Source: Naegleria gruberi
Lineage: Eukaryota
DNA length: 64,000 nucleotides
Assembly: GCA_000004985.1 (NCBI GenBank)
Contig: GG738854.1
Strand: one strand, 5' to 3'
Below, in pieces: positions 2,150-44,993 of the stretch. The position numbers and the translations under genes were made by a program. Below the pieces are notes generated by a model that had not been told where the DNA came from, made no database searches, and saw only the letters and a list, made by a program, of their open reading frames with translations. Numbering within the stretch: the first letter of the stretch is position 1; each line of letters starts with the position of its first letter.

Positions 2150-2795
2150 ATGGACTACTACAACGGAAGCTTTTATGGCAATGATAAGATTGAATCGGAA
2201 CCTTCTCAGATTGAATTGTTGAGTGGGTTGATAGAGGAAAGTGAAACGGTGGAGAAAAAGTCAAATCCAGAAATTGAAAGAAGTAAGAGAGAGGAAGAAG
2301 ATTATTGGAGAAAGAGACGATTGGAGGAGGAACGTGTTTTGAGTAGAATTGATAAGGGAGAGGATGAGGATAATGATGTCGACTATGCAAGTGTTTCAGG
2401 CCATTGTATAATTGAGGAAGTTGATAAACTGAAAGGAACAAAGGCAGCAAAGTTAGATCCTAATATTTGGACTGCAGAAGATTTGGAATTTTTGGATGAT
2501 AATCAGGGAGATAACAGAGAAACACCAGAGTAGGTTTCTAATTATCATAATGTATTTAACCAATTGTCTAGTTATGATGTTGTTTATCAGCAACAGGTTT
2601 CTTCGAGTGATGTTTACTTGGGAATGGACCCAGAAAAAGATCCATCAACAATGAGTAGTGATGCTATTGCTTACTCAATCAAGTTGCCAAAGACTGAGAA
2701 GATGTCTGAGATAGAATTAAACATTTCTTCAAGATCATTTTCAATCAAATCAGAGCATTAGTAAGTTTTAACAATTACAGCTTTTATGATTAACT
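2150..2795 (+). CDS. Acidic (D/E-rich) hypothetical protein, about three exons
   Basis: Exon 1 is ORF 2150-2533 and ends at a GTAGGT donor (~42-nt intron). Exon 2 is ORF 2564-2761 in frame. A second GTAAGT donor near 2757 and a short terminal exon give ...SEHYFYD*. No recognisable domain. Confidence 0.35.
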
Positions 2796-2974
2796 CGATT
2801 CAGTATTCTTGGAGTTTCATTTCCTCAACCAGTACTGGATAATGAAGCAAAGGCAAAATGGAATTCAAAAACAAAATGCCTTTCTCTATCAGTACCTTTT
2901 GTAAAATAATTTGTAAATAATTTACTTTTTATCATTTCTTTATTGATATGTTTTACAAAGGATAAAGTTAAAAA

Positions 2975-14421: not shown

Positions 14422-16855
14422 TTATAAGAGACCTAATTTAACATCACTTGAATGAACTGCCACAATTGTGAATTTTCTTTCATCACCTGCATTGTAAGTG
14501 GATGGTAGAATGTAGTAAGCAATATTGGCCTGAAGTGAAATTGTGAGAGCTGCAACTCGATTGAATCCCCAAGAATTGGTTTTTGCACATTGACATGCTG
14601 ATCTCATCTCACCCTTAAAAACATGGAACCCAACACCGGCCAGTTTTCCATCCTTTTCTTCCTGACATAATAAGATATCCACTTCACAATCCTTAGCTGC
14701 TGAAATCATGACTTTTGGATTTTTCCAAAATGTTTCCTTATTATTTGGACATCCACCTGCTGTTTCTTTTGTCCATTCACATTCTAAATACTTTCTCTTG
14801 AAAATAGAATCTGTGAGAGGAATCAAGTCGACAGTTACTGGTGGACCTGGAGGTTTTTGGATGAAGGCCTTGGTGGTAAACTTCATCTCTATACCAGTTT
14901 TGAATGTTGTTGGAATCAGGACATAATTCTTATTTGTTTCCAGATCGAATGCATCATCACTAATATTGTCCGCTCTGTTAATGAATTGAAGAGGTTTGGC
15001 TGCCTCCTTATTTTCATAAATTGGTTTTGTTGGGTTCTTGTCGTTAGCCTGTAATATGTACATTCCAGTAAACTCTGGTTGATCAGAAACTTGCTCCACT
15101 CCTACTCTGACTCGCAATTTTTTACTCTCGTTACTCTTCAAAGTCAGTAAGAATTGTGGGTTCTTTATCCACCTCCAAGAATTCATGCACCCACCAGCAG
15201 ATAAAAAGTCCCATTGACTTTCCTTAGCAACGTAATGATAATATTCCTCTTCACCAGGCAATAATTCAACATTGAATCCCTTACAGCTTGATCGAATAAA
15301 TGTTCTAATAACAAAAGATCCGACCTTATCCTTAAAGTACACTGATGGACAAATCAAATAGTTTCCAGCTGCTAATTGATTATATTTCATTGAATTTTCT
15401 CTACTATATTCAAATGTACTCTTAAACATAATACTAGCTGGTTTGACAAAGAAGCATCTATCCTTATTTTCATCAGATTTCATTACATGGAAACCGATAG
15501 GAAAGTCCTTGTCCTTAACATCTGACAAGTACTTTGATGAATGTAGTGTCAAACTTATTATTACATCTGAAGTTTCTTGAAGAGTGAAAGTGAATTGAGG
15601 TCCTCTCCTAGAAACTTTAGTATTAGCAGTGAACAATCCTTCACCATTCCAATTTCCTAACCTAGTTTGGCATTTCCATTCAACAACAGCTGGTGTATCT
15701 GGATTCACAGGGTAATTAATTAGTCTACAAACATCCAATGTAGTGAAATATTTACAAAAATCCTCAATGGTCATATGGAAAGTTCCGTCATCTGCAAAAG
15801 AAGGCTTTACAACCTCTGCAACTTTAGGAGAGTTTTTCCATTCCGCTGCATTATCAGCCCAAGCACCTTTCCATTCTCCATTGGCCCCTATTTTCATTAA
15901 GATCTAAAATAATTCAAACAACTTACAAGGATTTTTCAATCTAATTAATTTTACATCTGCAACTTCAAAACAGTCAATAACGGCATATGCATGTCCTGCC
16001 ATAAGGCCTGTACTTCCAATCCCAGTTTCTCCTGTTGTTGATGATGAACTAGCTCCAATAAGAGTAGCTTGCTGAGTTCTCTTGCTGACATAGTTCCACA
16101 CATCCAAAACAGTTTTCTTTTTCATATCCATTACTTCAGAGAAACCTCCTGTCATGTCAACAAGCGCATTTCTAGTAAATCCTCCTTCAAGACTTGCATA
16201 AGATCCCATAAATTTTGCATAGGCTTTTTCTAACAACGGAACCCAAAATTCATTTGGGTTGGTGCTTTTAGCAAATACCAAGTTCCCTTTCAGATCACAA
16301 GGTAATCTGTCATCAATTGATACATTTTTCCATTGACCATCCCTAAAGAATCTAAATGAATATTTTCCTCTTTCCTTAGTTTCTGGTTTTGAAACAATCA
16401 ACTGTTCAATTCTGTGTCTTGAATCTGCAAGAATACATAATGACCCAATAAACCAACTATTAAATTATTAAATTAGTACTTCAATAATAGGCAAAAAAGA
16501 GTACTTACCAATCACCTAGACCTCCTTGTTGTACATCAAGAACATTTACATCATCAACGAATAATTCTGGATTTACAGCACCATTCACCTGGTGAGGTCG
16601 GAGCCATTTCTTTATCCTAGCAGCACCTGGAGGTGGTTTTTGATTTGGTTTATAAACGCTTATTGTCTCAGCTGGAAATTCCAAATCCTCAAAAGGTTCT
16701 GTTGCTGTATCAATCTCTGTTTTAAATGTATCTAGTGGAGGAGCCTCGGGAATCTCATGATCTTTGGGCTATTATCATATGATAAAGTAACAATAACAAT
16801 AGAAATTATTTAATAAAAACTACTAAGCGAGTGGGCAACATACATTGAATGGCAT
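14422..16855 (-). CDS. Calpain-type cysteine protease with C2-like domain III (4 exons)
   Basis: ATG at 16855 (MPFN) and a GTATGT intron of ~75 nt. The active-site Cys lies in QGGLGDCWFIGSLCILAD, split by a 52-nt GTAAGT intron. His is in GLMAGHAYAV. The LIRLKNPWGANGEWKGAW junction is created by a 39-nt GTAAGT...AATAG intron at ~15898-15936. A ~490-aa C-terminal domain III-like region follows. Confidence 0.85.
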
Positions 16856-18509: not shown

Positions 18510-20366
18510 TTATTGTTCGATTGGTTGATCATCTACAGTTTCTTCTTGCTGCTGATTTGGTTCCAATATTACATTGTTTTCTGAGTGGGTCAGTTCTGAT
18601 GAATTTTCATTAGCTTTCCAAAAGTTTTTGGTGTAAGCCACCTTCATCTTGAAATGCCTAGTCTTGGTGGTAAACAATGATGATCTGTCAGAGTAAATGA
18701 TATCAAGTAAACTGTATTTGATTTCCTTACTCTTTTTAGCTTCTTCTTTCCATGTGTTTTCATTCCAACCCTTTCTTAAGTTAGTATTGAATAAGTGATT
18801 GGATGGATACTTTTCACATTTTAGATAATAGTATCCAATCAGTACATCCATGGAGGCATAGTCTATTCTTTTGAGACAATGTGAAAGTGTTGGATTCAAA
18901 TCATGTGGTTGCCATTTGTACTCGTAAAATTCAAGAATTCCCTTAAATTTGTAAAACATTTTTTGATTGCTGAATGTGTGGAATGTAACCAATTTGGAGA
19001 GACCTACTGAGTAAGGATCTCCTTCAATCCATCCTTGATCATTCATATAATCAGGAGTGTTGATGAATGTTCTGTCCAAATTTTCCATGTTATGTTCAGT
19101 CAGCCAATTATTAATTCGTTTCAAATCTCCATTCAGTGCAAATCCAAGTTTGGTAAATTTAGGATTAAATAAAAAGTCCACTAAATAGTCTGCAGGTATT
19201 TCATCGAAATCTACCAATATCATGAAACAAACAAAAGAGTTTGCTACTTGTATAACTCGTACTCCTGTTTCTTGTGGATCAAAGAAATTCCACTCTGTAT
19301 CAAAAATAAAAGGGAATTTACCATCATTAAGGAATATATTCCATAATTCTGGAGACATTTCATTCATGTGTTGAATGATAACAAGTCTATTTTTCAATTC
19401 CATAAGAGGTAAATTATCAATAAGTTCACCTTCTTTCAATTCTGTTTGATTTTTCAAAAAATTATAGGCATGGATATCCCACATTGATAAATTATCAGTC
19501 TTTTCCTTCCCAATCACTGAATAGTAGAAGTGATCTCTGAAATCATTAGTCACTATTTGTTTCACTAACTCATAAAATTTAGCTCTAGGCATTCCAATAT
19601 AATTATAGTGTGCAAACATGCCAATAGAAGTGCACGGTTTGTTTTGATATAAATTTACAATTCTGATATTCTTCCTCAAAATATCAAACATATACAATTT
19701 GAAAAAGTATGGTGCATATTGAGACTTATTTGGTTCATATAACAGGGATTGTTTTTTGGTTATATATAAATTTCCAACAATAGATGCTTCACAAAGTGCA
19801 CCTATGTTTTTCTCAATAAATTTAGTATTGAATAATTCCAGAGATTTTGGCAAATGTTGTCTCAAATTACTCTTTAACAATTTAATGTCTGCGCTTTCAA
19901 ATTCCTTATTGAACTCTTTCCCATGTATTCTCATATAATTATTTAAAAATACAATTAAATTAGTTTCATGATCTTCATTGAATGAAATTAGTAAATTATC
20001 TAATCCTTTTCTCTGTTCGGGAGACAATGTTTTAATATTCTTAAAATTTTGTTCCTTTTTCTGTTTCTTTTCCGAATTAGAGAAATTATCCTTCTTTTCC
20101 TGTTTCTTGATATGTTTTGTTTTTTGTACAATTGGTGTGATTTGTATATTTTCAATAATTGTTGATTGAACCACTTCGGAAGGTGTTTCCACTTGTTGCT
20201 TTATACCTTCAATATTGTTATTCTTTCCAAGAGGTAAATTATTCACACTCGGAGTGACAAGATCACTGTTATTTGTTGTTGTATTTTCAACCTTCTTATA
20301 CCAAATTTTGGCTTGGCTTGGTTTTTTGTTTTTATGGGATTGTTTGTTAGTTTCTTGTTTCTGCAT
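18510..20366 (-). CDS. DEDDy-type 3'-5' exonuclease domain protein (RNase D/WRN-exo/Mut-7-like) with a basic N-terminal region
   Basis: ATG at 20366, single ORF. Exo motifs: I FIFDTEWNF, II LGFALNGDLKRI, III YASMDVLIGYY. The N-terminal 250 aa are K/N-rich. Confidence 0.55.
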   Translation of the reverse strand: MQKQETNKQSHKNKKPSQAKIWYKKVENTTTNNSDLVTPSVNNLPLGKNNNIEGIKQQVETPSEVVQSTIIENIQITPIVQKTKHIKKQEKKDNFSNSEKKQKKEQNFKNIKTLSPEQRKGLDNLLISFNEDHETNLIVFLNNYMRIHGKEFNKEFESADIKLLKSNLRQHLPKSLELFNTKFIEKNIGALCEASIVGNLYITKKQSLLYEPNKSQYAPYFFKLYMFDILRKNIRIVNLYQNKPCTSIGMFAHYNYIGMPRAKFYELVKQIVTNDFRDHFYYSVIGKEKTDNLSMWDIHAYNFLKNQTELKEGELIDNLPLMELKNRLVIIQHMNEMSPELWNIFLNDGKFPFIFDTEWNFFDPQETGVRVIQVANSFVCFMILVDFDEIPADYLVDFLFNPKFTKLGFALNGDLKRINNWLTEHNMENLDRTFINTPDYMNDQGWIEGDPYSVGLSKLVTFHTFSNQKMFYKFKGILEFYEYKWQPHDLNPTLSHCLKRIDYASMDVLIGYYYLKCEKYPSNHLFNTNLRKGWNENTWKEEAKKSKEIKYSLLDIIYSDRSSLFTTKTRHFKMKVAYTKNFWKANENSSELTHSENNVILEPNQQQEETVDDQPIEQ

Positions 20367-27964: not shown

Positions 27965-29734
27965 ATGATCAAGAAGGTTGTATCGTTAAATAAAACAACA
28001 CACCAAATCAACAAAATTGTTGGCAATGCTGTTGCGAGAGGATTTCATGTAAGTCAATTCCGAAGAGAGGAGGAACATGTTGCTTCTAATACTTCATCGA
28101 ATGCAGGTGAAGCAAAGAGAGTACCAAGAAAGAAGAGATTTGCAACTCTTGCTGTTGAAGAGGAGATTAATTCTAGCACTTCAACATCCACTAGTACACC
28201 ATCAGTTCAACGAGAAGCTCAAAGATTTGAAGCATTCAGATATTCAATTCCTTGGAAAGATGCTGAATATTACAATGAAGAAAAACTCGAAAATGAAATG
28301 AGAAGAATTTTTGAAATTTGTCATGGATGTAGAAGATGTTTCAATTTGTGTGAATCATTCCCTTCACTTTTTGATATGATTGACAAGGTTGAAGTTTTGG
28401 AACAGGTACCTTCTAGTGAATTCAAAAAAATATCAGACAAGTGTACAATGTGTGATTTGTGTTACAATACCAAATGTCCTTATGTACCTCCACATGAATT
28501 TAATATCGATTTCCCTCATTTAATGTTGAGATATAGAGCTGTAGAACAAAAGAAGAAAAATGAAAGTCACACTACTCAAAATCCTCCTATTCAACTTCGT
28601 GAAACAACAGGATTCTTGACAAAGGATTCACCAAACAAGGAGTTTGAAGCTCCAGTTCATGAAGGTGTTGATAGAAAATTAACTTTGGAAAAGGAAAGTG
28701 AACTCTCTCAACAACTTCTTACAAAGATGGACAGAAATGGCTTCCTTCTTACTAGACTTCCTCAATCTATTAGCTACTTCTTGATGAACAATTCAATTAT
28801 TAGAACAATTTTGGACAAGCTTAATCTAGTTCACAAGAAGGCATATCTTCCACCATTTACCTTTGGAACACTTATGGGAAAGTTGAATTCCACAACACCA
28901 AAGAATCAATCATCCAATACTAATCAAGAAAAAGTAATCATTTATACAACATGTCTTGGAAATTACAACAAACCAGAGTTGGTTGAGTATTCTAAATATA
29001 TTTTGGAGAAAAATGGAGTTGAAGTTGCTATTGATTACAATATGTGTTGTGGAATGCCTTACTTTGAACAGGGTGACTTGGCTGCTGTGAGCAAATCCGC
29101 TGAAAAAGTTTCCGATTTCCTTGTAAATAAGTATATTAGTAAGGGATTTAAGGTTGTCACAGTTGTTCCAAGCTGTTCTCTCATGTTGAAATCTGAATGG
29201 GCCAATGTTCTTCCAGAAAATGAAAATGTCCAGAGCGTTAAAAGAAATACTATGGATATTACAGAATATTTGGTTTATTTGGCAAAGAAGAATGGTGGTA
29301 AATTACCAACGCACGACCAAATCAAGGAAATTCCATACAGTATTACTTTGCATCATGCTTGTCACGCAAGAGCTCAAAATATGGGTAATAAGGGTTTAGA
29401 TGTTTTAAAGTTTATTCCTAATGCCAAAGTTAGTGTTATTCAAAGATGCAGTGGTCATGGAGGCAGTTTTGGTACAAAGAAAGCACACTTTGATACAGCT
29501 GTAAAATTCGGTATGCCAGTTGCTAAGAAGATTTTACAAGATGCAAGCAAATCCAAAACAACTCACGTAATGAGCTCTGAATGCCCACTCGCTCAAGAAC
29601 ATTTGGCTCAAGTAACTGAAATGTCAAAGGAGGAAAAACAAGGAACTGTTTCCACTATTTCATCAAATGGAAATGATCACAACATTCAAAGCAAGCACCC
29701 AATTGAGATTTTATATGAAGCTTATCAAAAATAA
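27965..29734 (+). CDS. GlpC/GlcF-like iron-sulfur oxidoreductase subunit (two 4Fe-4S ferredoxin motifs plus CCG cysteine-rich domains) with an N-terminal mitochondrial-like presequence
   Basis: Intron-less 589-aa ORF. CHGCRRCFNLCESFP and CTMCDLCYNTKCPYVPP fit CxxCxxCxxxC(P). Downstream CCG-type motifs (NMCCGMPY, QRCSGHGG). The N-terminus is basic, amphipathic and Arg/Ser-rich with no acidic residues. Confidence 0.65.
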   Translation: MIKKVVSLNKTTHQINKIVGNAVARGFHVSQFRREEEHVASNTSSNAGEAKRVPRKKRFATLAVEEEINSSTSTSTSTPSVQREAQRFEAFRYSIPWKDAEYYNEEKLENEMRRIFEICHGCRRCFNLCESFPSLFDMIDKVEVLEQVPSSEFKKISDKCTMCDLCYNTKCPYVPPHEFNIDFPHLMLRYRAVEQKKKNESHTTQNPPIQLRETTGFLTKDSPNKEFEAPVHEGVDRKLTLEKESELSQQLLTKMDRNGFLLTRLPQSISYFLMNNSIIRTILDKLNLVHKKAYLPPFTFGTLMGKLNSTTPKNQSSNTNQEKVIIYTTCLGNYNKPELVEYSKYILEKNGVEVAIDYNMCCGMPYFEQGDLAAVSKSAEKVSDFLVNKYISKGFKVVTVVPSCSLMLKSEWANVLPENENVQSVKRNTMDITEYLVYLAKKNGGKLPTHDQIKEIPYSITLHHACHARAQNMGNKGLDVLKFIPNAKVSVIQRCSGHGGSFGTKKAHFDTAVKFGMPVAKKILQDASKSKTTHVMSSECPLAQEHLAQVTEMSKEEKQGTVSTISSNGNDHNIQSKHPIEILYEAYQK

Positions 29735-29739
29735 ATAAT

Positions 29740-32700
29740 TTATTGGTATTCGATTCTTTGTCTGAATTCTTTGATACTTTCAAATATTTCTTCGAAAGAT
29801 GGTCTCTCAGTGTCAAGAGCAGACCAGCATACCTTCATTAAACTGATATAATCAACAACTACAGAGGCAATATATGTTTTTGGATGTTTGGTCAGGATGG
29901 TATCAGTAAATTTCTCGAATGCTTTTGGATCTTCGGTATTGAAAGGTACTACTGGTCTTAAACCATTAATAACCTTTAAGGCAATGGTAAATAAGTTAAA
30001 ATCTTGATTCTCATATGGTTTACACTCAAAAAGAAGTTCATACATCATTATTGCAAATGAAAACACATCACATTTTTCAGTATATCTTTCTTCTTGAAGA
30101 CATTCTGGGGCAATAAATTCCATTGTACCACAGTGCCCAGTCATTGTTGCTTGAACGTCAGCAACTCTTGAAATACCAAAATCTCCAATCTTGGCAGTTC
30201 CCCCTCTGTTAATCAAGACGTTTTGAGGTTTGAGATCACGGTGAAGGCTAATCGATTTGTGAGTTAAAAAGAGATTGAAATTACTTACATTCCCTTATAA
30301 TGTAAATACATCATTCCTCTACAAATGTCCAACAAAATGTCCAATTTTTGCTCTATAAGGAACTTTCCTTTAAGCTTTTTAGTGTAATGATCTAGTGATC
30401 CATTTTCCATAAATTCAGTAATGATGAATTGATGTTTAAGATCTCCACTAGTACTAATACAAACTCCTATAAATGACAATACATTTGGATGTCTTAAAGA
30501 TTTAAGTAAAAATACTTCTTTTTGGAATAACTCTTGGTCTTCGGTGTACCCATCTGATAATTTCATTTTCTTGATGGCAACCTCTGTTCCCTTAAACCTT
30601 CCCTTGAAAACAATAGCAAATCCACCTTCAGATAATCTTTCTGTGAATTCCAAATCTTCAATTTTAATCATAAAGCTGTCATCATAGTCTACAGAATTTG
30701 AAATATTAAATTCACTCTTGAGAAGGGTATCTTCAAATTGCTTTTCAGCATTTTGTTTCTTGTAGAGTGCCTTTCTAGTTTTGAAAAATACAAATGTCAA
30801 AGTAAATGAGAGAATCAACAATCCCAAACCAGTTCCAAATAATGTCCATCTGAAAACGTCTTGAAATATTTCTGGATAGACAAGGTAGATAAATGTATAT
30901 GAAGAGGTAATATCTGCAACCACGAGATTGTCTCCTACTTTAGAGATTTTATAGTTGGAATTACTTGTGTCTCCTCTCTTTACTTGAACAGAGGTTTCAA
31001 CATATAAATGTTTTGCCCAGCCTCCAACTACAAGCTTACTCAGCTCACCACTACTTGAAATTGTGTAGAATACATTATTACTAGTATTTTCTGCATAAAG
31101 ACTCACATAATAGTTGTCATTAGTATAGTAATTATCAGAATCTGTTTGTGCAGAACAATTATTTTCACTTCAAAAGTTAGAATATTAATAATCTCATATA
31201 CTTACTGGGCCTTAAGAAGAACTAAAGTATTTCTATCTAATATTATCAATTTACAACCACAAGCAATTACCAAGTAATTGTGCAACCAAATGTGTCTAGT
31301 CAAATCAAAGTCACAACCTAAGAAATCATTTTTCGTATCATGGAAAGTGCTTACAACTTTGAAATCATTTTGAAAATCTCTTCCAACAAGCCTAGTACCA
31401 TTGTCATCTATTTCTAATGCAAGAAGAGTGTTATACAAAATATCTACTCCAAACATTGTACTGCTTCTACTCGAGTGTTCACCAAAGTCAAATTGGTTTC
31501 CTTCTTTCCAAGTTATTGCTTGATCTTGTACTGTTATAAATAACATTTTCACTTTTTGTAAATCTGAATTATCATTACAAACAGCTGTGACAATAAACAC
31601 ATCCTTGGTTGAGTCATATTTCATTGAATATGGAATAAAACAAGAATCTGATTCTTCATATTTTTGTGAGGCAACCAGTTTCAAAAAAGTAGAGTCAAAC
31701 TTGTAAAAGGTAAAGTTATCATCCAAAATATAATAATAATCTAATGAAATATGATAACCAATTATAGTTCTAGAACGTTGAGGAACATATAGATCATAAA
31801 CTCTCTTAAAAGTGCCATCAACAATCTGAAGAAGTGAAATGGTCTTTTGTCCAATGGCAAACAATGAATGCTTGTCATGTCCATGGTGTAATTCGCTGAC
31901 CATAAAAAGGTCATCTACTTGATATGATGTAGTAAATGGAGAGTCTTCTAAAAAAAGGTTGGTATCTCTCGATTTGGTTCTGGTGTGAACAATGCTATTC
32001 TTGAATGACCCATAGACAACGTCTGCCTGTGGCGTAGATTGTATTGAACTGTTATACCAAATGAAGGTGCATACTGTGAATATACTATTTTGGAAAGAGT
32101 TAGCACCCAGTATAACCATATTATTGCTCAACACTAAACCAGTAGCATCAGTGTAGAGCGAAGAAGTAGTTTCAAAACGCAAGAAATAATGAAGATCTCC
32201 TGCCTTAGTTAAACTTGAAGTAGAGTGAATGGTCTGAAGTCTTGAGGACCTTGAAAATTTTACTCCACTACCCAACCTTGTATCATTCAAATACTGATCT
32301 AGAATCAAATATTCCATTGGACCAACTTGGGCATCATAGGTCGCACGTTTAGCGAAAAAAATAGATAATTTTGTATCATCAAGGTCATTCAATGATGTAT
32401 AGTCAAGAAATCTTACTTCAGCTACATTCTTGCTATCAAAATTATGGGTATATGACCTGATTATATTGAATGATGTGAGGTCAATTTGATGAAATGTAGA
32501 TGAAGAGGTCAATAAAACAATGTAATCTCTTCTAATGATGTGGTATGCTGAAGAAGAAAAGACAGAGTCGAATGTTTGAGGGAGGGTTAAATTTTTGAGA
32601 GGTGTAAAATTAATCGTCAGATTTCCTCCATGACTAATCTGATAAATTCTCAATTGAGCAGAGACTTTGTAATCTGTGGTATCTATCGTTTCATACACTA

Positions 32701-33562
32701 ACAACATGTTAATTCATTGATGAAACAAATAGAACAACTTACTACTGAAAAATAGGTTCTTGTGAGGAACAAAGAAGCAATATCTGGAACAATATTGGGA
32801 ATAGCTGACTCCACTCAAAAGATTAATTGGTGATTCTGAAATAGAAGATGGTTGGTAAACTAAAATATCAAACATTCTGTGAACAGAAAAAGCTTTTTTA
32901 GCAGGAGCTGTCAAGGCGAAGGAAGAAAGCGTAAGTCTCTTTGAAACATCAGTCATAAATAATACGCAATTTGATGTCAAATAGTCTGGACAAGACAGTG
33001 CACCTACAACAGAAGATGATTGACCATCCTTATTATCCATAGGATAGAGAGCCACCCAACTTTGTCTCTTTTGTGTTATTGATTCCACAAAACTTGCACT
33101 ATCAATACTCAAATAAGATTCTCCAAAATTACTCAAAAAATCAGGTTGTCTAATTGACAAGGAAATTAAAACAGCCAATAACATTCCTCCAACCAAAAGT
33201 ATTATCAATATAGCCTCTATTATCAAACATATTTTAATTGATTCATTGATAATTTCATCTCTTTTCATTTGATCCCCCTGTGTTATCTTGTCGAATGTTG
33301 TTTTTACATTTGTTGTAACATTTTTAAAATAATTTGTTATTAATCCATTACTAGATCGTTGCGTTGTTACTATATTATTTGTATCAATCGATTCATTTGT
33401 AGTTCCAATCAAAGGCTCGGAAAGTAAATTATTATTTGTTTTTTTTCTCTTCTTGGTACTCGCTATTGATGAACCTGTATTTTCATAGGATGTATAATAT
33501 GAGGTTGTGAAGGATGATGGATGTAATTCTTGTTGTTGTTGATGATTATCCAAACTCGTCAT
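29740..33562 (-). CDS. Receptor-like Ser/Thr (TKL-type) protein kinase with an N-terminal cytoplasmic tail, two TM segments and a large ectodomain (4 exons)
   Basis: ORFs 32714-33586, 31202-32707, 30285-31106 and 29740-30216 are joined by ~41-49-nt GTAAGT introns at ~32708-32752, ~31141-31189 and ~30219-30259. The kinase has VAIKK, the HRDLKPQNVLI catalytic loop (split by the last intron), GDFGISR and APE. TM1 is ICLIIEAILIILLVGGMLLAVLISL. TM2 is LFGTGLGLLILSFTLTFVFF. First ATG at 33562. Confidence 0.7.
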
Positions 33563-33909
33563 TGCGCAAGAGCAAAAAATTACCACCTCAAAGTCTTGCT
33601 ATTTTTTTTAAAAATAAAAAATGTTCGCTTAAATTGAGGAGAAAATTTATTATTGTTTCTCAAGAATCCAAATTGCATCCAGTTTGCTACGGAGTTGTTG
33701 TTCCTATTCCTATGTTTCACCAAGACACAGGAGTAAGAATGTATTTTTGGACTCACTATTGATTGTTGAGATTGAGATATTTAAGAAGTGTTGATCTATT
33801 CATATAGAGTCTTGTTTATCCAATACTACAGTAAGGATTTTGTAATCGAATATCAAAAGTCACAGTTTAAAAGGGTAACCTTTTAAAAAATTGTGTCAAC
33901 AACAAAATC

Positions 33910-34749
33910 ATGCCTTCCACTCTTTCACAAGAATCCATTCTCCAATTCAAACATTCCTTCTCCTTGCTAGATACTGATCGGAAGGGTTTTGTGACCATTG
34001 ATGATATCAAGATTATGTTGAGAGCACTTCATATTAGAATTGATGAGGAGGATATTGATGATTTGATTCATCAGGTAAAATCAATGGATAGAGAAACTGT
34101 GGAGAGATTATATGAAACCTCTGTTTATAACGTTAATTTTTCAACAGTTAATAATAATAATACAACAACCAATGGTAATTATAATACAGAGAGTAGTAGT
34201 GAGCAACAATTGTCATCATTGGATGAGGAGGAATCATTGGATGATGAGGATGATGACAATTCATTGGCAATGACAGAGAAAGACACCAACAAGAACATTG
34301 TAGAATTGGTCAATAGTAATGATAATTCATCCATTATTCCACTTGTGAAGATTAATCCAAAGAGATTGAAAAAATCGGAAAAGTTTATTGCTTATAGACA
34401 TGGTTTCGATTTACCAGAATTTATTGCTTTTATTTCTTTTGCTGTGAATAGAGAATATCCAAATATTGGAGCTCATCCAAATGAAAGTTTTCAAGAATTG
34501 GATACAGATGAGTTGATAGGGAATAGTGGAAATCAATCACAATTATTTGAAAATATGGATGAATTATTCTCTATATTTGAGGATGTTAATGATAAGGGAT
34601 ATATTACCAAAGCATCATTAAAATCAGCGATTGAGAATGTTGGTGAATTCCTTCCAAATGAAATATTTGATCAAATGTTTCACGAGGTTGATTTTGCAAA
34701 AACTGGGAAAATATCTAGAATCCAGTTTGCATCCATTTTTGATCATTGA
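33910..34749 (+). CDS. EF-hand calcium-binding protein with an N/D/E-rich insert
   Basis: ATG at 33910. EF-hand loops DTDRKGFVTIDD and DVNDKGYITKASL/DFAKTGKISRIQF. Confidence 0.55.
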   Translation: MPSTLSQESILQFKHSFSLLDTDRKGFVTIDDIKIMLRALHIRIDEEDIDDLIHQVKSMDRETVERLYETSVYNVNFSTVNNNNTTTNGNYNTESSSEQQLSSLDEEESLDDEDDDNSLAMTEKDTNKNIVELVNSNDNSSIIPLVKINPKRLKKSEKFIAYRHGFDLPEFIAFISFAVNREYPNIGAHPNESFQELDTDELIGNSGNQSQLFENMDELFSIFEDVNDKGYITKASLKSAIENVGEFLPNEIFDQMFHEVDFAKTGKISRIQFASIFDH

Positions 34750-36079: not shown

Positions 36080-37318
36080 CTATATTCCCATGGCATTCAA
36101 TCTTTCAGAAGCTGATTCGGTGGTGGTTTTCTGAACGACGTACTTGAAATTAGAGTGAATTCTCTCCAGATCATTATTTAGAAAATCATCAACCATTTCA
36201 AGCAATTCAGAATTTTCTTCAATAATGCTCTGATCTGGAATATCCATTAAATTGAACATTAATTGATTATTCTTATTTGTGGAGCCACTCTCTGAAAAAT
36301 CAATATTTCTCAAAACTGGAAGCGAGTCTTCTCTGATTCTAAATTCGAATGGCTTTTCACCTTTAAGAATTTCTGTGTCTTTAATCCATGAAAAGAATGC
36401 GCTTCCTGTATATTGATTAAATGGATTGAATTCCAGAACTTGAACATTGAGATTATCCATATCGTGTAGTTTTTCTTCGTCTGAGGATAATGGATAAATT
36501 ACTAAATCCATTACACTGTTATCAAATGGAATTTCGTCCTTAATCTTTTCAAAAAAGTTTAACATTGCCTTCAAATATAAATCCTTATGGTTACACAAAT
36601 CTTCAAAGAAAAGAGCATCATTATATTGTGAAATGGCACACAATTTTCTATTATAAACAAAAGTTCTGAATTCGTATTGAATATTATGATTTGGAATCCA
36701 TTTTCTCAATACGAAAAAGACATTCCACAATGAATCGTCATTTCTATACTTGAGTGCAATATTTAAATCATCATAGACACGAGTAGAACTTGTCATCATT
36801 TCAATAGCCTCTTGTCCACTTTCAAATTTCATAACTTCCACTTGAGATTCAAAGAATGCAATGAATTCATTATTTTGCTTATCTTGATCTGATTGAATTT
36901 TAGCATTTTCACCTCCAAAAGAAAACATTGCATTCTTTTCATAAAGCTTTCTCTGAAGAATTTGACGAATCTTTTGGGAATTAAAAGCAGCATCTTTAGG
37001 AGATCTAGAACTCAATCTAATAAAAGCACTGCTCACATCCATTTCTTCATCATAAAATTCAGAATTATTTGTAAGTTCATCATCAATTTTTCCTTCCAAT
37101 TTCTTTAAAATTTCATAATCATCACCACTTGGTGATTGATCCTTCGTTTTCTTAATATGAAATTCGTATTGTTTAATCATGACTTTAGCTTCGGATTGAG
37201 TGATAGGAATAAATTTAGTATAAGTTGTAAACTTGGAACATTTTTCATACCAAGCATCAATGTCATATTCAAACCCGTATCGTTCACTTGGGTTGGATAA
37301 ATCTTTAGGTTCTGTCAT
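36080..37318 (-). CDS. CDC123: Cell division cycle protein 123 (CDC123/D123 family)
   Basis: ATG at 37318. The D123-family signature FIRLSSRSPKDA and a length of ~410 aa match. No introns. Confidence 0.75.
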   Translation of the reverse strand: MTEPKDLSNPSERYGFEYDIDAWYEKCSKFTTYTKFIPITQSEAKVMIKQYEFHIKKTKDQSPSGDDYEILKKLEGKIDDELTNNSEFYDEEMDVSSAFIRLSSRSPKDAAFNSQKIRQILQRKLYEKNAMFSFGGENAKIQSDQDKQNNEFIAFFESQVEVMKFESGQEAIEMMTSSTRVYDDLNIALKYRNDDSLWNVFFVLRKWIPNHNIQYEFRTFVYNRKLCAISQYNDALFFEDLCNHKDLYLKAMLNFFEKIKDEIPFDNSVMDLVIYPLSSDEEKLHDMDNLNVQVLEFNPFNQYTGSAFFSWIKDTEILKGEKPFEFRIREDSLPVLRNIDFSESGSTNKNNQLMFNLMDIPDQSIIEENSELLEMVDDFLNNDLERIHSNFKYVVQKTTTESASERLNAMGI

Positions 37319-38589
37319 TGCTAAATTCTTTCTATTTTTTTCAGTTTTTAATTTTGAAAAGTGCAAAGATGAAATTTACCTCCTTTACATGTTGTAACGT
37401 AATCAAACAATCTTAATAACATCTCTGATCCAATAAGAATTGTCCAATGATTACCAATATCAAATAAATATAATTTAAAATCATATCGGAAGATAATTTT
37501 CCAAAGCACAAGTAAGATAATTCAAGGTATTGATAAAAAAATTGTTAATGTTCGAATGTTGCATCACATGCAAACAACTAACATGTGAGGAATTGCTTCA
37601 CTATCATGAATAGATGGCTTAATACTGTCCATGAATGTCTAGTTGGTTTCATAGAGCAAGTTGTTTTTTCTGAGAGAGCATGTATTTGAAACATGCATAT
37701 TAATAGACACAGGGCCTTGCCAACTTTTTTGCACAACATGTGGAAACAAAAGAGATGGGAAATAACTAACAGTAATTGAGTTGTGGATTTAGTTTTTCTT
37801 ATTGCCATTCCTATCCTTCAGTTCCATATTCATAAAAATATATTAATACAAATTGGTTTTATTTGACCTAAACCTTATTGAGAAACAGCTACATTAATTT
37901 CTTCAGTGCTATTTATGTAGTATTTTGGGATCCTTTGGGTTGTAATATTCTTTTGTAAAACAAGAAGATTTGAATGTTTTCCTGTGTGCAACTTAAAGCT
38001 CAAGATCCAAACAAGATTCAATAAAAATAATATAAAAAAAATTGCATTGTTGACCTCAGCAGTTCTCTAAAGAATGGATTTGATAATGCCAACTTTCAAT
38101 AACTTCCAATATCGAGGTTTAGCTGATACTAAGAAATCTGATATTACCAAGACCTACCAGGGGATACATGCTCAAGCTCAATAACTAGTTATTGAACATC
38201 TATTATTAATAATACTCCAGTGTCATCTTCGTAGACTGTCTTGATGCATATTGTAACAGCATTCTCTGATGAACTTTGAGAAGAACATTACAATGAATGG
38301 TATGGAAAGAAATTGTTAAGTTTCAGTTACCTTGTCAATTGTTCATGGTAGCGTTAGAATTTCAATATGAATGAAGAATTGAGTTAACCTGTCTATCCCA
38401 ATTATCATTTCTAATATTTTTAAAGATTATGGAACGGATACATTATTAATTCCAATCAGGGAAGAATTGTCTTATTAACCCTCAATTGGACTAACTTTGA
38501 CACTAATCGGAGAAAACCCATATGAAAGAGGACTGTACTAACTTCTTTTTAATTTATCATATTACTGATGAACATGTAGTAAAAAGCCG

Positions 38590-40647
38590 ATGCTAGTAAA
38601 AAAAATGCACAGAATCAACTATGCTGTACTCACCTTACTCTTTTTGCTGCACATTAGTGCCATTTTAGGCGTTATTAACACCTCGATGAATAGTAATAAA
38701 ACAGTGCTTAATGATGTTGTGCTTCCTGGAGAGGAGCAATGCTTTGTGAGGCACCATTCGGATCCAATACGGTTTTTGTGGAGTATTAACAATAACGATT
38801 ATAGTGATGAGGCAGAAAATTCTTCCTTCCGAAATATTACACTCAATATAAAAGCCTCAAAAATGAGCGCGACTTTTTGCATTGGTCTCCAGCTATTCTC
38901 TGAGGGAGATAAGTTTTTCATGTCGCCCATAACTGAAAATTATTATATGAAAGAACCATTAAGCAATGATTTTACAATGATTGAGGATGTCAGGTATCGG
39001 CTGTATTGCTATTTTCAAAGACTAGGAACCTTGGATTATGACATCCTTCCATCAACATTTTGTCAGACAAGAAATGGAACTTCATTTCAAGAAGGATGTT
39101 CTTATGGATATGCAAACCAAAAATTAGATTCTTTCCTTGCCAGAGCAGATTGGAAATTCACTCTCAGACAACCATTCAAGCAATATGATGCTAGCATGAC
39201 AGATTTGGAAATTAAGATTCCAATGTTATTACCTGCAAAAATTGATGTTCAACTACATTTGGTGTTTGTGGATATGTACTGGCGATTTTGGATAGACCCC
39301 TTCTCAACTTATGGATTAGTCGGATCTTCCTATTATATACCAATTATTTCACAAAATTTGACCTTAGCAAACTCACTGAAACCTTATTGGCACGATGAGT
39401 GTGATATTTTGACTTATAACTCAAGACCACAATATTATTATTGGAAAATGGTATCTTTATCTATTGGAGTGGCTGAGTTTTCTATTATTCTTGTAATGTT
39501 ATTTATTAAGAGAAATCATCATATGATCAAAAGTAGATTTGTCGTTCCATATTTCTCTTGTGGATTGTATCTCGCCCAAGGAGTGGCAAGTATAATCTTA
39601 AATATTATATATTATGATCCAGAGTGGGACACTTTGATGGAAGAACTTGTGGTGATTGCAGTGCTTTCTTTGCATTTCTTGCAGGTGTTGAGATATTATG
39701 CTTGCCGATACTTTTATTCAAAACATTATTCGAAAAGAGATAGTATCATTTTGAAAGTACTATTGTCCAAGTTCTTATTCTTGGTTTCTATCATTTTTGT
39801 CCTAATGTGTGAGGCTACAATTGTTACTTTTTTAATGACCTCGATTTCATACCTTAACCTTGCCAATTATGTGTACGACTCAATTTGTCTCATAGTAGCT
39901 GTTGGTTATATTTCAGTATTAGGTGTAGGATTAGCAGCCCATTTTGTTTCGAACAAAAACTTTATTCAAACACTTAAGAATAAGAGGAGAATTGCAAGGT
40001 GGTTCTTTCTGTATGATGATACCTTTGGCTACAATATTGAATTCTTTGTTCAAATCCCACCATTATGTTTTGTATTTCTTCATTTTACTGTTTCTCAATT
40101 AGATGTCTCATATCTCACGATACTAGTATTTGACCATACGCGTCCAATCTCTACCATGTACACAAACCATACCATTGGTTATATCTTATATGGTGTAAGC
40201 AAAATATTAATGATAACTGGGTTCACCTTTCAAAATTTGTTTCTAATTATTTACACATTCGTAAAAATTGAACAACCTGTTATAGATGATTACGGTTCAC
40301 AACAAGAGGAAATGGATTTATTTCTCTCTAAAACATTTAGTGATGGAACTGTTTGCATGGATATTATGAAACAATTTCTTGCAAGAGAATTCAGAGTTGA
40401 GCTATTAGAATTATATATTTTCTTGTCCAAAAATCCAAAGGCAGGCGATTTTGAATTGAGTGAAAAATATCCACATTACTCGACCGTCAGTGGTATTTCA
40501 GATACTTCTCCTAGCACTCAATATGAAATTATTACACGAAATTTATTAGAGGCATTTGGACGACTGAAACAAACAGTTGTGTATGAAGAGGAATATCTGA
40601 AGAAAAATATGGATGAAATTGAGTTTGTATTTAACAGCATAACGTAG
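38590..40647 (+). CDS. 7TM receptor-like protein with signal peptide, ectodomain and a C-terminal RGS-like segment
   Basis: 685-aa ORF. N-terminal signal (LLFLLHISAILG), ~250-aa ectodomain, seven hydrophobic helices, then a C-terminal MKQFLAREFRVELLELYIFLSK segment resembling the F..FL..EFSEENLEFW helix of RGS domains. Confidence 0.5.
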   Translation: MLVKKMHRINYAVLTLLFLLHISAILGVINTSMNSNKTVLNDVVLPGEEQCFVRHHSDPIRFLWSINNNDYSDEAENSSFRNITLNIKASKMSATFCIGLQLFSEGDKFFMSPITENYYMKEPLSNDFTMIEDVRYRLYCYFQRLGTLDYDILPSTFCQTRNGTSFQEGCSYGYANQKLDSFLARADWKFTLRQPFKQYDASMTDLEIKIPMLLPAKIDVQLHLVFVDMYWRFWIDPFSTYGLVGSSYYIPIISQNLTLANSLKPYWHDECDILTYNSRPQYYYWKMVSLSIGVAEFSIILVMLFIKRNHHMIKSRFVVPYFSCGLYLAQGVASIILNIIYYDPEWDTLMEELVVIAVLSLHFLQVLRYYACRYFYSKHYSKRDSIILKVLLSKFLFLVSIIFVLMCEATIVTFLMTSISYLNLANYVYDSICLIVAVGYISVLGVGLAAHFVSNKNFIQTLKNKRRIARWFFLYDDTFGYNIEFFVQIPPLCFVFLHFTVSQLDVSYLTILVFDHTRPISTMYTNHTIGYILYGVSKILMITGFTFQNLFLIIYTFVKIEQPVIDDYGSQQEEMDLFLSKTFSDGTVCMDIMKQFLAREFRVELLELYIFLSKNPKAGDFELSEKYPHYSTVSGISDTSPSTQYEIITRNLLEAFGRLKQTVVYEEEYLKKNMDEIEFVFNSIT

Positions 40648-40826: not shown

Positions 40827-43800
40827 ATGGCATCGGAAGGTGACAGCCAAACAGCCATTGATTCAGGGTAAGTGAACTAATGACATGTTAACCATCAATG
40901 CCTCCCACAACACAGTTATTCTGATTCAACTCCCCAAGTGAAAACTGTAACCTCCAACAAGAGAGGTCTCATGAAGAGAACAGCAACATTTCACAATAAT
41001 AATTCATCACCAACCACAACTACACCAAATACTCTCGATTCATCAACCACTCCAACAACTCCTTCCAATGATAGTCAATCAGGAAGGGAATCCAGTGGTT
41101 CTAAAATTGTGAAGAGAGTTGTAAAGAGACAAATTACAAATAATTCAACAACCACAAATAATAATCCATCCAATTCCACTTCATTATTATCATCATCACT
41201 CCAACAAGGATCATCCAGTACCATCCCAATAGGTGGTAGTGTAAACTCCAATCATCATCATGATAATAGTACTTCCTCTTCACCTCCTTCTGCCATCTCA
41301 AGATCATGGCATCACTCGAGGAAGACTAAACTTTCATCATCATCCAATATTGTTGGTAGTGTTGGTAATAATGGTGAATTTTCTCCTTCCTCTCCCACCA
41401 TTTCATCCTCCTTCAATAATAATTCCTTCTCTCCCAATTATAATAACAATAATTCACCATCGTCATCACTTCCTCACTCTAATTCCTTCCAATCCAAACT
41501 CTCCTTTAAAAAATCGAATACAATTAAAAATAAGGCTTCTCCAACAAATGGTGTAGATCAACAACAATCATCATCAACCTCGATAGGTGGTGGGAATGGA
41601 AGGATTACTTCACCTGGTTTTTATAGAGAAGGTGATTTGGATGAGGGAGATGTATTGTTTGCTAGAAAGACTGAAGGATCTGAACGTTCTTCCAATGCTC
41701 AAAGTTCTGATACCAATGATGAGGGTACAACAGATGACGATGAAGAAAATGGAGGAAGAAGAGCACAGGACCAAAGTGAGGGAAGTTGGGACCGATCAGC
41801 TCCTTTTAGAGTGCACCAAGATTCTTCTTCGACAAGAAAAAAGACAAATTATCAACCTCCTGCTCTTTTAAATAGGAAAATTATTCCTCCATCCGAACTG
41901 TATGGTGCAAGTCTTGCTGCTTCTATAATGGATAATTCTTCTCTGATGAATGCATCTGTTGGATCAATGGAAGGTAAAATGGTGGAAGAAGCTGTTGAGA
42001 GTGATCCCGAATCATTCTCTTCTGGTGAGGAGTCATCATATTCACATAATAATTTTACAGAAGAGTTGAGTAATTCTCAATTGCAACAGTTGAGTATGAA
42101 ACATTCTCCTTCTTCACCAATATTAGCTTCTTCACCTCGTACTCTTGATATTCCTTTAAATTCTCCTCTTTCTTCTAGTCCAATGCAAAAAATTGCAATG
42201 ACACACAGCAAAAGCTCATCGGATATTAATACTGCACGTTCAAACCAACATACTAAAGGAATGTATTATAGAATGATGACTGGTGGAAATCACACTCAAA
42301 GGAAGAAACAATACAGAAAATTAGTAACCAAAAAGAACATTTTTGGGTTGCCTGTCACTTTTTCAAAGCCAGCACCTGTCACAACAACAGATTATCAAGA
42401 TGAGGAATATGTGAAGGAAATGACAACTACAAAGGATAAGAACAAGAAACCTGTTGTTAATTCTCAACTTAAAAAAATTGATGATTCACAAGATAAGTTA
42501 GAAGATGTCCAGGATAAACTTGCACTTTTCCACAAGATTCAATATGCTCCTGAAGATATGCCTCTTTCTCCTGGTAGATCTTTCCTTGATACTACTCCAA
42601 GAAAGATTGAAAAACCAGAAAAAAAGGATGATAAGAAACAAAAACAAGAAGTACAAACACCAACAACTCCAAAGCCAACAAACGCACCAACAGTCAAGAA
42701 ACATTTTTACAAAGTTAATACTGGAACATGTACATCAATTCCATCTACTGTTCCTCTTAATACTGATAATATTGATAAGAAACAATTTGAACTTGTTTAC
42801 TGGTCCACATACAAGGACTTGGCAGAGGATGAATATCTTATTGAAAAATTCTTTGTTTCTAATTTTAGTGCTATGGATTTATTATATAAATTATTTTATA
42901 ATAATCCAGATGATACAAACAGAAAGAGAAAATTCAAAGAATTATACAATGGTCATCTCATCACAGAACAAATGGAACAATTAAGAGATATTTTCAAACA
43001 AGTTTCTAAAATCAGAATGTGTACACTTGTGAAGAAGAGGGATGAAAGACTTGAGAATAACCAAAAACTTCATGAGGAAAAAATTATGCAAGACTATGAT
43101 TCATCTTCCTCAGATGATGACGTAGACTTGGTTATTAACGAAAAAGGAGAAATTGATAATGTATTCAGTATGAAGAATTTGATGAATAACTTTGACCAAA
43201 ATATTTTGGCAGAAATCAACAAAACTTCTAAAACATCTAGAAACCAAAGAAATATTACTATCAATTCTGAAACATTAACTTCCGAAATTTCTAAATCATC
43301 CCATCTCACTCTAAAAGATTTAGAAAACGAAGAAAGATTTAACATTTCTGCTAAAATTACTGGTGATACCAAAATTGAATTTTATACAATTAGAAATTGG
43401 TTGACTAAGATTTTAGCCTGTTCTATAACAAGAAAAAAGAGAGAAATGTCCACAATTTTACCTATTCAACCAAGAGAAGAACGAGAGGAAAGAATAGAAA
43501 GTTTCTCTGCCTCTCCAGTTACTGCTACCTTGCTGAATATTGCATCTGAAAGAAATGAATGGGCCAATGAAGAAACATACACCTACACCAACACCAATAC
43601 CAATACTAACACTAATACTGACTCTGACTATTCTGATCCTAATCACTTGCAAAGATGGAAGAGAAAGTCAGTTCTTAGAAAGGGTCCGTTGGAGAATAAT
43701 ACACCAAAACTTGAGATGCAACCTACAGAATTGTTGGACTACATGATGGCTCTATCATGCAGTGCTTCAACTTTATTTGACACATTAGACGAATGGGAGG

Positions 43801-44993
43801 TAAGAATTCACGCCTTGTTTGCTTTTTTGGAAACTCTGACTTTGCAAACACCTCACCAAATTAATTGTATTCTAGTATTCTTAGGAGATTTAATCCTCTA
43901 CAATCAAAGCCTAATGAGCTCAGAATTTATTCATGAGTGTTTGATACCTTATTTAGGCACTATCTTGAAAAAACCAGAAAGTATACCTTTTGTAGATCTA
44001 TTTTTGAAGAGAATTACAGAAAGATCACAACTTTTGTACATTAGAGACCAAGCACAAAGAACTATCAATTTAACTTTTGATAACTTTTCTTCCAGTGCTA
44101 ACGAACCAAACTTTTTAGTTATTTCAAGCTTCCAACTTTCTATTCAATTAACATTGATCGAGTTTGATTTATTCAGTATGATGGAACCTTATGAATTTTA
44201 CTCCAGTTATTGGCTATCAAAGAATCGTTTCAAGGTAAAAACACGAGATCCTTCAGCAAACCTTTCTCTCTTTATCAACTTTTACAATACTGTATCATTG
44301 TGGGTTACTGAAACTATCTTGTCCTATTCTGATATCAAAGATAGACACAAAGCCCTTTGTAGATTTATTTCATTGGCTTGGGGATGTTACTCTGTAAGAA
44401 ACTATAATGGATGTTTTGAAATTATCAGTGGTTTATATTCCAATGAAGTTTATAGACTTAGCAAGACATGGTCCATGTTGAGTGAAGAATATTTGAAACG
44501 AGCTCAAACCCTTATTGATCTGACAAGTGTTGCCAACAATTACAGAAACTACAGAGAAGAATTAAAGACAGCAAAGAAACCATGCATTCCAAATATTGCT
44601 GTTCACTTGAAAGATTTAGCAGCAGTTGATGATTCTCAGGAAGATGAAAGAAAATTAACAGAAGAAGAAATGAGACTTTTGGCAGAAAATGATGAATTTT
44701 GCCAACAAGTATTCATCGGAAGAACTCTTGATGAAGATATTGAATACAACTTTAGCAAGAGAAGACTCCAATCAACTTTAATCTGTCAATTATTAAGATA
44801 TCAAAAGACTTCCTATCCATTCAAAGCCAACGATACTCTCAAACATTTCATATGGCGTAATTTACTTCGCATCAATGAAGACATCAGAAGACAAATGGAA
44901 GATAAAAAGATTACCATTGAAAAGTACATCCAAGAGAGAAAGAGACAATTCCTAGTCAAATCCAAACAACTCGAACCAAAATCTACAAGATGA
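40827..44993 (+). CDS. Ras guanine-nucleotide exchange factor (RasGEF/CDC25 family) with long S/T/N-rich N-terminal region, 2 exons
   Basis: ATG at 40827 (MASEGDSQTAIDS), then a 48-nt GTAAGT...CACAG intron at 40868-40915, then the main 1351-codon ORF. The RasGEF catalytic region is in the C-terminal third (LIEFDLFSMMEPYEFYSSYW, CFEIISGLYSNEVYRLSKTW). Confidence 0.85.
40868..40915 (+). other. Spliceosomal intron (48 nt) in the RasGEF gene
   Basis: Donor CAGG|GTAAGT, acceptor CACAG|, phase verified against the downstream frame. Confidence 0.7.

Follow-up and report, generated by a model that had tools for sequence, protein, structure and literature searches.

A predicted receptor-like kinase of Naegleria gruberi that crosses the membrane twice and probably carries a β-propeller sensor

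Introduction

Receptor-like kinases beyond animals and plants are poorly charted. Those of protists and plants, including the Entamoeba TMKs, the membrane tyrosine kinase-like (TKL) proteins of oomycetes and dictyostelids, and the plant receptor-like kinases, either have the type-I layout, in which a cleaved signal peptide precedes a single transmembrane segment (TM), or are fusions with seven-TM receptors. In this study, we describe a minus-strand gene in a 64,000-nucleotide stretch of Naegleria gruberi DNA (contig GG738854.1, assembly GCA_000004985.1; hereafter the window, to which all positions refer) that is predicted to encode a receptor-like kinase of a different layout. The predicted protein shares with the protist and plant kinases a sensor outside the cytoplasm, a membrane span, and, on the cytoplasmic side, a TKL or Ser/Thr kinase with an HRDLKxxN loop, and in both cases the sensors are fast-evolving and lineage-specific. 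It differs from them in its two TMs and its cytoplasmic N-terminal tail, and its ectodomain is an orphan, apparently β-rich region with 11 Cys, whereas theirs are rich in CXXC motifs or are of the leucine-rich-repeat, lectin, or other types. A survey of membrane-linked TKLs found fusions of seven-TM G protein-coupled receptors with TKLs only in oomycetes and Amoebozoa (PMC5784254). No paper describing a heterolobosean receptor-like kinase was found in the literature searched.

The order TM1, sensor, TM2, and kinase is also that of the two-TM sensor histidine kinases, such as EnvZ and PhoQ in bacteria and Sln1 in yeast. Bacteroides hybrid two-component sensors, for example BT4663, carry twin periplasmic β-propellers in a sensor of about 700 to 750 amino acids (aa). 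The histidine kinases, however, have a HisKA/HATPase_c module with no sequence relationship to the Naegleria protein, and the likeness is architectural only. MET and RON (Sema domain) and Mycobacterium PknD (NHL propeller) likewise join a propeller sensor to a Hanks-type kinase on the other side of the membrane, but MET is a tyrosine kinase of type I, an N-terminal kinase is combined with a single TM in PknD, and neither a Sema nor an NHL profile of Pfam matched the Naegleria protein. The resemblances to two-TM sensor kinases, MET, and PknD are best regarded as analogies, not memberships. The layout is typical of bacterial sensor kinases and unusual among eukaryotic receptor kinases, and the gene would represent an alternative way of building a receptor kinase, with two membrane passes, a cytoplasmic N-terminal tail, and an orphan, probably double-propeller sensor.

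Results and Discussion

Predicted protein and its orthologues

The explanation that we favor, and consider probable, is that the gene encodes a lineage-restricted (heterolobosean-specific) receptor-like Ser/Thr kinase of the TKL type that crosses the membrane twice, with both termini in the cytoplasm (N-in/C-in), and bears a probable double-propeller sensor. Positions 29740–33586 contain four minus-strand ORFs in a row, with 290, 501, 273, and 158 codons. At the GC content of 33%, which is the window average, stops should recur at intervals of about 13 codons, and four successive long open blocks on one strand are far beyond chance (about 1e-17, by estimate, for the 501-codon block). Removal of three short gaps, each beginning with GTAAGT and ending with AG, gave a coding sequence of 3699 nt without an internal stop, which runs from the earliest ATG within its ORF to a TAA at 29742–29740 (Table 1). 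A preliminary description of this DNA, made from the letters alone, had proposed that ORF blocks 32714–33586, 31202–32707, 30285–31106, and 29740–30216 join through three canonical short introns into one protein of ~1200 aa, with an S/T-rich N-terminal tail containing KKRKK, TM1, TM2, and a C-terminal HRDLKPQN kinase. The block coordinates were exact, the spliced product is 1232 aa, and all of these elements were located in its translation. The ectodomain, by contrast, had been given as ~900 aa, and the region between the TMs is about 740 aa.

Table 1 Positions of the predicted features of the kinase gene in the window
Feature	Residues	Position	Strand	Description	Basis
Whole coding region	1232 aa	29740..33562	-	ATG to TAA, 4 exons and 3 introns	Splicing, translation, orthologue alignment
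Exon 1		33562-32743	-
Exon 2		32697-31206	-
Exon 3		31167-30289	-
Exon 4		30247-29740	-
Intron 1		32698..32742	-	45 nt, GTAAGT..TAG, phase 1	Position and phase matched in L001 and N. fowleri-like L002
Intron 2		31168..31205	-	38 nt, GTAAGT..AAG, phase 2, CTAAC branch-like motif	Position and phase matched in L001 and L002
Intron 3		30248..30288	-	41 nt, GTAAGT..TAG, phase 2, within the kinase directly before HRDLK	L001 intronless here
N-terminal tail, predicted cytoplasmic	aa 1-110	33233..33562	-	S/T/N/Q-rich	Three-species alignment
TM1	aa ~111-137	33152..33232	-	Long hydrophobic segment, putative signal-anchor	Kyte-Doolittle 19-residue window up to 2.99
Predicted extracytoplasmic region	aa 138-877	30849..33151	-	About 740 aa, includes introns 1 and 2	Alignment, models, fold matches
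TM2	aa ~878-900	30780..30848	-	Followed by KTRKALYKK (positive-inside)	Hydropathy, flanking charge
Juxtamembrane segment, predicted cytoplasmic	aa 901-942	30654..30779	-	Conserved AEKxFxD...SEF	Higher identity than ectodomain
Protein kinase domain	aa 943-1221	29776..30653	-	Includes intron 3	Pfam

An exhaustive HMMER search with exon 2 against 1.84 billion cluster representatives returned only two related clusters. The first contains the Naegleria fowleri protein FDP41_000497 (KAF0984598.1/XP_044569311.1, UniProt A0A6A5CH30) and CAG4709781.1, two annotations of an orthologue of 1252 aa, each of which is a single hypothetical protein ("protein kinase domain-containing protein"); a genomic contig, L002, matches this orthologue. 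The second corresponds to a homologue on a metagenome contig, L001 (ENA ERZ27315067, 5456 nt), which we assembled into a 1239-aa model with four introns. The order of tail, TM1, ectodomain, TM2, and kinase is identical in the three proteins. End to end, the N. gruberi protein is 37% identical to the N. fowleri orthologue and 34% to the L001 homologue, and pairwise identity among the three rises along the chain from 17–26% in the tail and 25–31% in the ectodomain to 43–57% in the juxtamembrane segment and 61–71% in the kinase. Between N. fowleri and N. gruberi, the kinase is 64% identical and the ectodomain, which is ~730 aa long in N. fowleri, 29%. The two species share introns 1 and 2, whereas the N. 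fowleri gene has extra introns, a kinase intron 4 nt away from that of N. gruberi, and other neighboring genes. Two conserved peptide patterns, scanned against JGI metagenome contigs, matched 208 times without revealing a true relative, and nothing specific to the N. fowleri locus tag, the Naegleria kinome, or Naegleria receptor kinases was found in the literature searched.

Kinase domain and membrane topology

The C-terminal domain matched Pfam PF07714 (PK_Tyr_Ser-Thr) with an E-value of 1.3e-52 over profile positions 1–257 of 258 and PF00069 (Pkinase) with an E-value of 9.4e-51. K970 (in VAIKK), E988, D1068, and D1086, the catalytic residues, are invariant in the three orthologues; HRDLKPQN is at aa 1066–1073 (30220–30243), DFG is at 1086–1088, and the APE motif is kept. 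From these intact motifs, the kinase is predicted to be catalytically competent. HRDLKPQN is a loop of the Ser/Thr type, HRDLKxxN, and not the HRDLAARN or HRDLRAAN of tyrosine kinases. The named database matches of the domain were TKLs (STY46-like, oomycete TKL, MLK/MAP3K9, and VIK-like), and its PDB matches mixed, at similar E-values, tyrosine kinases (EGFR, JAK, and BTK) with TKLs (CTR1, TNNI3K, and TAK1). TKL is the best label for the domain, in line with the earlier assignment, and we place it in the protein-kinase superfamily, probably in the TKL group.

TM1 and TM2 are the two strongest hydrophobic segments in each of the three orthologues. In all three species, basic residues stand immediately ahead of TM1, and a basic run like KTRKALYKK follows TM2. 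Judged by hydropathy, flanking charge (positive-inside), and a conserved N-glycosylation sequon, the tail and the kinase are predicted to be cytoplasmic and aa 138–877 extracytoplasmic. Hydropathy and flanking charge in the three orthologues thus support the two-TM layout of the preliminary description, which had remarked that it departs from the usual bitopic receptor kinase; the protein is predicted to have two TMs, a conserved cytoplasmic tail, and no signal peptide.

The ectodomain as a candidate tandem β-propeller

The extracytoplasmic region contains 11 Cys and 9 N-x-S/T sequons. Six Cys (C191, C199, C258, C262, C735, and C753) are invariant in the three species, and the conserved sequon is at N489 in WYN[ST][ST]. 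No Pfam family matched the ectodomain of any of the three orthologues even at E ≤ 10, no PDB sequence matched it, no internal repeat was detected (hhalign probability between segments <1%), and the window holds no paralogue of it. The ectodomain is an orphan by sequence, and at this level the earlier statement that it belongs to no recognisable repeat family holds.

AlphaFold2 models were built from exon 2 (496 aa, three-row alignment, mean pLDDT 51.5) and from the N. fowleri ectodomain (738 aa, six rows, mean pLDDT 50.5); exon 2, which was also the input of the exhaustive search, and the N. fowleri ectodomain for the longer model were used in place of the spliced protein. Both models, although of low confidence, are nearly all β, and the strands of the better-predicted membrane-proximal half (pLDDT 55–85) fall into about seven groups of four. 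In a Foldseek search of the PDB, the exon-2 model matched propellers exclusively (WD40, BamB, and the designed Tako8). For the full model, the top-ranked Foldseek matches were tandem double-propeller proteins, including IFT-A subunits, UTP/WDR proteins of the small-subunit (SSU) processome, and COPB2, with alignments of 640–800 columns. The TM-scores are low (0.13–0.34) because the models do not fix the global geometry. A length of ~740 aa is compatible with roughly 14 blades. Overall, the models lean toward a tandem β-propeller, which we regard as somewhat the better bet for this fold; of the two folds that the preliminary description had suggested checking by structure prediction, propeller or lectin, the propeller is the probable one, at low confidence.

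Proposed mode of action

We infer a receptor function, with its ligand and location, from this architecture. TM1 would act as an uncleaved signal-anchor, so that the ~740-aa domain would face the outside or a compartment lumen. There, the propellers, probably two in tandem, would be stabilized by three conserved Cys pairs and N-glycosylated. A ligand or surface may bind the propeller sensor, and binding may alter the packing of TM1 and TM2, the oligomeric state, or both. The conserved juxtamembrane segment could relay this change to the kinase, which would phosphorylate itself and cytosolic targets. The basic patch of the tail and its E-P-L-[LI] motif may serve as a sorting or adaptor-docking site.

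Several points weigh against this explanation. The topology rests on simple hydropathy and charge rules, and the plasma-membrane location is an assumption. The N. gruberi gene has no model in the searched protein collections. The structural models are poor (mean pLDDT 50–52, pTM 0.39–0.45) and were built from three to six sequences, which makes the propeller no more than a suggestion. Pfam gave no match in the protein to WD40, NHL, YWTD, or other repeat profiles, and hhalign found no internal repeat. Finally, the glycine-rich loop of the kinase is degenerate, reading SEGGFAIV in N. gruberi, and its first glycine is replaced by Ser in all three species.

The same architecture could also belong to a luminal sensor kinase of the endoplasmic reticulum or endomembrane system, like IRE1 or PERK, or of the contractile vacuole or phagosome system. 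We consider this unlikely: the chain ends 11 residues after the kinase domain with no KEN/RNase domain, and the kinase is TKL-like with no insert of the eIF2α-kinase type. The fast-evolving sensor and the conserved sequon fit surface exposure, although this is weak evidence.

A wider proposal, tentative and in our view doubtful, is that in Naegleria and its relatives a eukaryotic Ser/Thr kinase has been combined with the membrane layout that prokaryotic sensor kinases have, with a tandem-propeller sensor between two helices. Such a protein might work by helix-helix rearrangement and not by ligand-induced dimerisation of single-pass chains; it might belong to a new lineage-specific family of sensors for prey, substrate, or host cues, and in N. 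fowleri it might offer a surface-exposed, parasite-specific target. The orthologue in N. fowleri, the brain-eating amoeba, lacks close relatives outside the group. Should it be exposed at the surface, it would be a candidate target for diagnosis or drugs and a way into how these amoebae sense their surroundings.

Candidate families rejected

Membership of several known families was considered and rejected for this protein. A receptor tyrosine kinase does not agree with the conserved 110-aa tail, the anchor of ~27 residues, the two TMs, and the HRDLKPQN loop. An Entamoeba-type TMK was rejected because there are only 11 Cys in 738 residues, no CXXC/CXC repeats, and no signal peptide, and IRE1/PERK because there is no Ribonuc_2-5A match and no KEN/RNase domain and the kinase is TKL-like. 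A histidine kinase (HisKA/HATPase_c) was discarded because only protein-kinase families matched in Pfam. Membership of the WD40, NHL, YWTD, or PQQ repeat families was rejected on the absence of a Pfam match at E ≤ 10 and on the hhalign probability of <1%.

The N-terminal tail

The KKRKK patch of the tail (aa 37–41, 33440–33454) has counterparts in N. fowleri (KKQK) and L001 (HKKR) and is followed by a conserved motif, L-x-E-P-L-[IL], at aa 47–52. S35, L47, P50, L51, and F79 are invariant in the three species. As judged from its sequence, the tail is translated and not 5′ UTR: its frame is uninterrupted in each of the three species, and some of its residues are invariant.

These residues bear on another explanation, namely, that the protein is a classical type-I receptor translated from Met98, in which the hydrophobic stretch would be a signal peptide that is cleaved off and the tail would belong to the 5′ UTR. 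In N. gruberi, M98-KRDEIINESIK directly precedes the hydrophobic stretch and a small-x-small pattern (S-L-S) follows TM1; a comparably placed Met occurs in L001. However, the S-L-S pattern is unconserved, the ~50 residues nearest to TM1 include no Met in N. fowleri, and the stretch of ~27 residues is long for the h-region of a signal peptide. Moreover, the ~100 upstream codons are open in three species despite AT-rich DNA and contain the invariant residues and the shared motif. A type-I receptor is accordingly quite improbable, and an uncleaved signal-anchor remains the favored reading of TM1.

Introns and the unity of the gene

In each of N. gruberi, L001, and the N. fowleri-like contig, intron 1 comes after ...FFS and intron 2 after ...L(H/K)A. 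The only other acceptor near intron 2 leads into a stop. At the site of intron 3, L001 is uninterrupted and reads YLHYKGIIHRDLK (YKGIIHRDLK), which agrees with the spliced N. gruberi sequence YLHYKGILHRDLK; this straight read-through of YLHYKGIIHRDLK confirms the intron 3 splice. In N. gruberi, the kinase intron is in phase 2 after "GI"; the N. fowleri-like contig has it 4 nt upstream, after K-G and in phase 1. An additional intron (before IDL.TL) common to L001 and N. fowleri is absent from N. gruberi. These differences suggest sliding or turnover of introns within the clade. The region of the kinase intron corresponds to 30248–30288 of the window, about 12203–12263 of L002, and about 3900–4000 of L001.

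The blocks might instead be two genes, a type-II membrane protein (exons 1 and 2) and a separate membrane-anchored kinase (exons 3 and 4). Every block is an ORF in its own right, and prokaryote-style gene callers divide the homologous loci at the same points. Against this, the two halves are only 38 nt apart, with canonical GTAAGT..AG ends and the frame kept, and the position and phase of intron 2 are identical in L001 and the N. fowleri-like contig. In N. fowleri, a single protein of 1252 aa is predicted by both of two independent annotations, and conservation is unbroken across the junction. The exon 3 ORF opens with GTG and has no ATG ahead of its conserved ectodomain residues. Exon 3 alone (ORF 30285–31106) links the last ~105 residues of the ectodomain, TM2, and the kinase N-lobe, and the kinase therefore cannot be a free-standing cytosolic gene. 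Two genes are very improbable on these grounds. The single gene proposed earlier is supported by the orthologue annotation, the shared introns 1 and 2, and the content of exon 3. Intron 2, at the junction that had been named as a possible boundary (31107–31201), keeps its position and its phase 2 in all three species. The locus is a single intact N. gruberi gene.

Annotation status

No N. gruberi protein covering the kinase gene was returned by a word-indexed search with the N-terminal 903 aa, by a word-indexed search with the kinase part (best match only 55% identical), or by the exhaustive HMMER search with exon 2. The collections searched do hold both neighboring N. gruberi genes: the flanking plus-strand ORF 27965–29734 is identical to EFC47468.1/XP_002680212.1, a GlpC-like protein, and the flanking plus-strand ORF 33910–34749 is identical to EFC47469.1, an EF-hand protein. 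The GenBank and EukProt numbers of the two are consecutive (EFC47468/EFC47469). From the protein searches and these consecutive accessions, the reference protein set of N. gruberi appears to contain no model of this gene, which would add a protein of 1232 aa to it.

The word-indexed searches with the N-terminal 903 aa or with the three-species ectodomain alignment gave no matches and missed the N. fowleri orthologue too. With the kinase query, this orthologue was again missed, at 64% identity in the kinase, and all listed matches were shorter than 650 aa. The exhaustive HMMER search with exon 2 recovered relatives, and the empty word-indexed results reflect a limit of sensitivity, not absence. 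Word-indexed negatives should not be trusted for long, compositionally biased eukaryotic queries.

An environmental contig, L003 (ENA ERZ929261, PRJEB11402, contig k127_375146), is at 2550–3430 essentially N. gruberi genomic DNA and carries, besides the GlpC-like gene, the final ~730 nt of the kinase gene together with intron 3. Because its kinase part differs from the N. gruberi gene by a single synonymous change (AGT to AGC), it is uninformative for dN/dS. A decaying or silent pseudogene would account for the absent protein and the consecutive flanking accessions but is hardly credible with 1232 codons open over four exons, splice sites and all catalytic residues intact, the frame kept in L003, and intact orthologues.

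Genomic neighborhood

The kinase gene (minus strand, stop 29740–29742) converges with the GlpC-like gene, whose plus-strand ORF ends at 29734; only 5 nt separate the two stops, and the 3′ UTRs of the two genes must therefore overlap on opposite strands. Annotated as "anaerobic glycerol-3-phosphate dehydrogenase subunit C," the GlpC-like gene consists of one ORF of 589 aa. It has a long N-terminal extension with an S/T-rich stretch, and its near-identical homologue on L003 only weakly matches Pfam CCG.

Elsewhere in the window, four long ORFs (614–833 aa) had no Pfam match at E ≤ 0.001 and may be further lineage-specific genes: 166–2007, 2975–5473, and 38590–40644 on the plus strand and 18513–20366 on the minus strand. 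The remaining genes noted on the minus strand code for a calpain-like protease fragment (Peptidase_C2 and Calpain_III; 14425–15897), a D123 family protein (36083–37366), an M28 peptidase (48971–51652), and a VWA protein with a CPSF6-like RSLD region (61606–62997), and a RasGEF protein of 1351 aa is encoded on the plus strand at 40938–44990.

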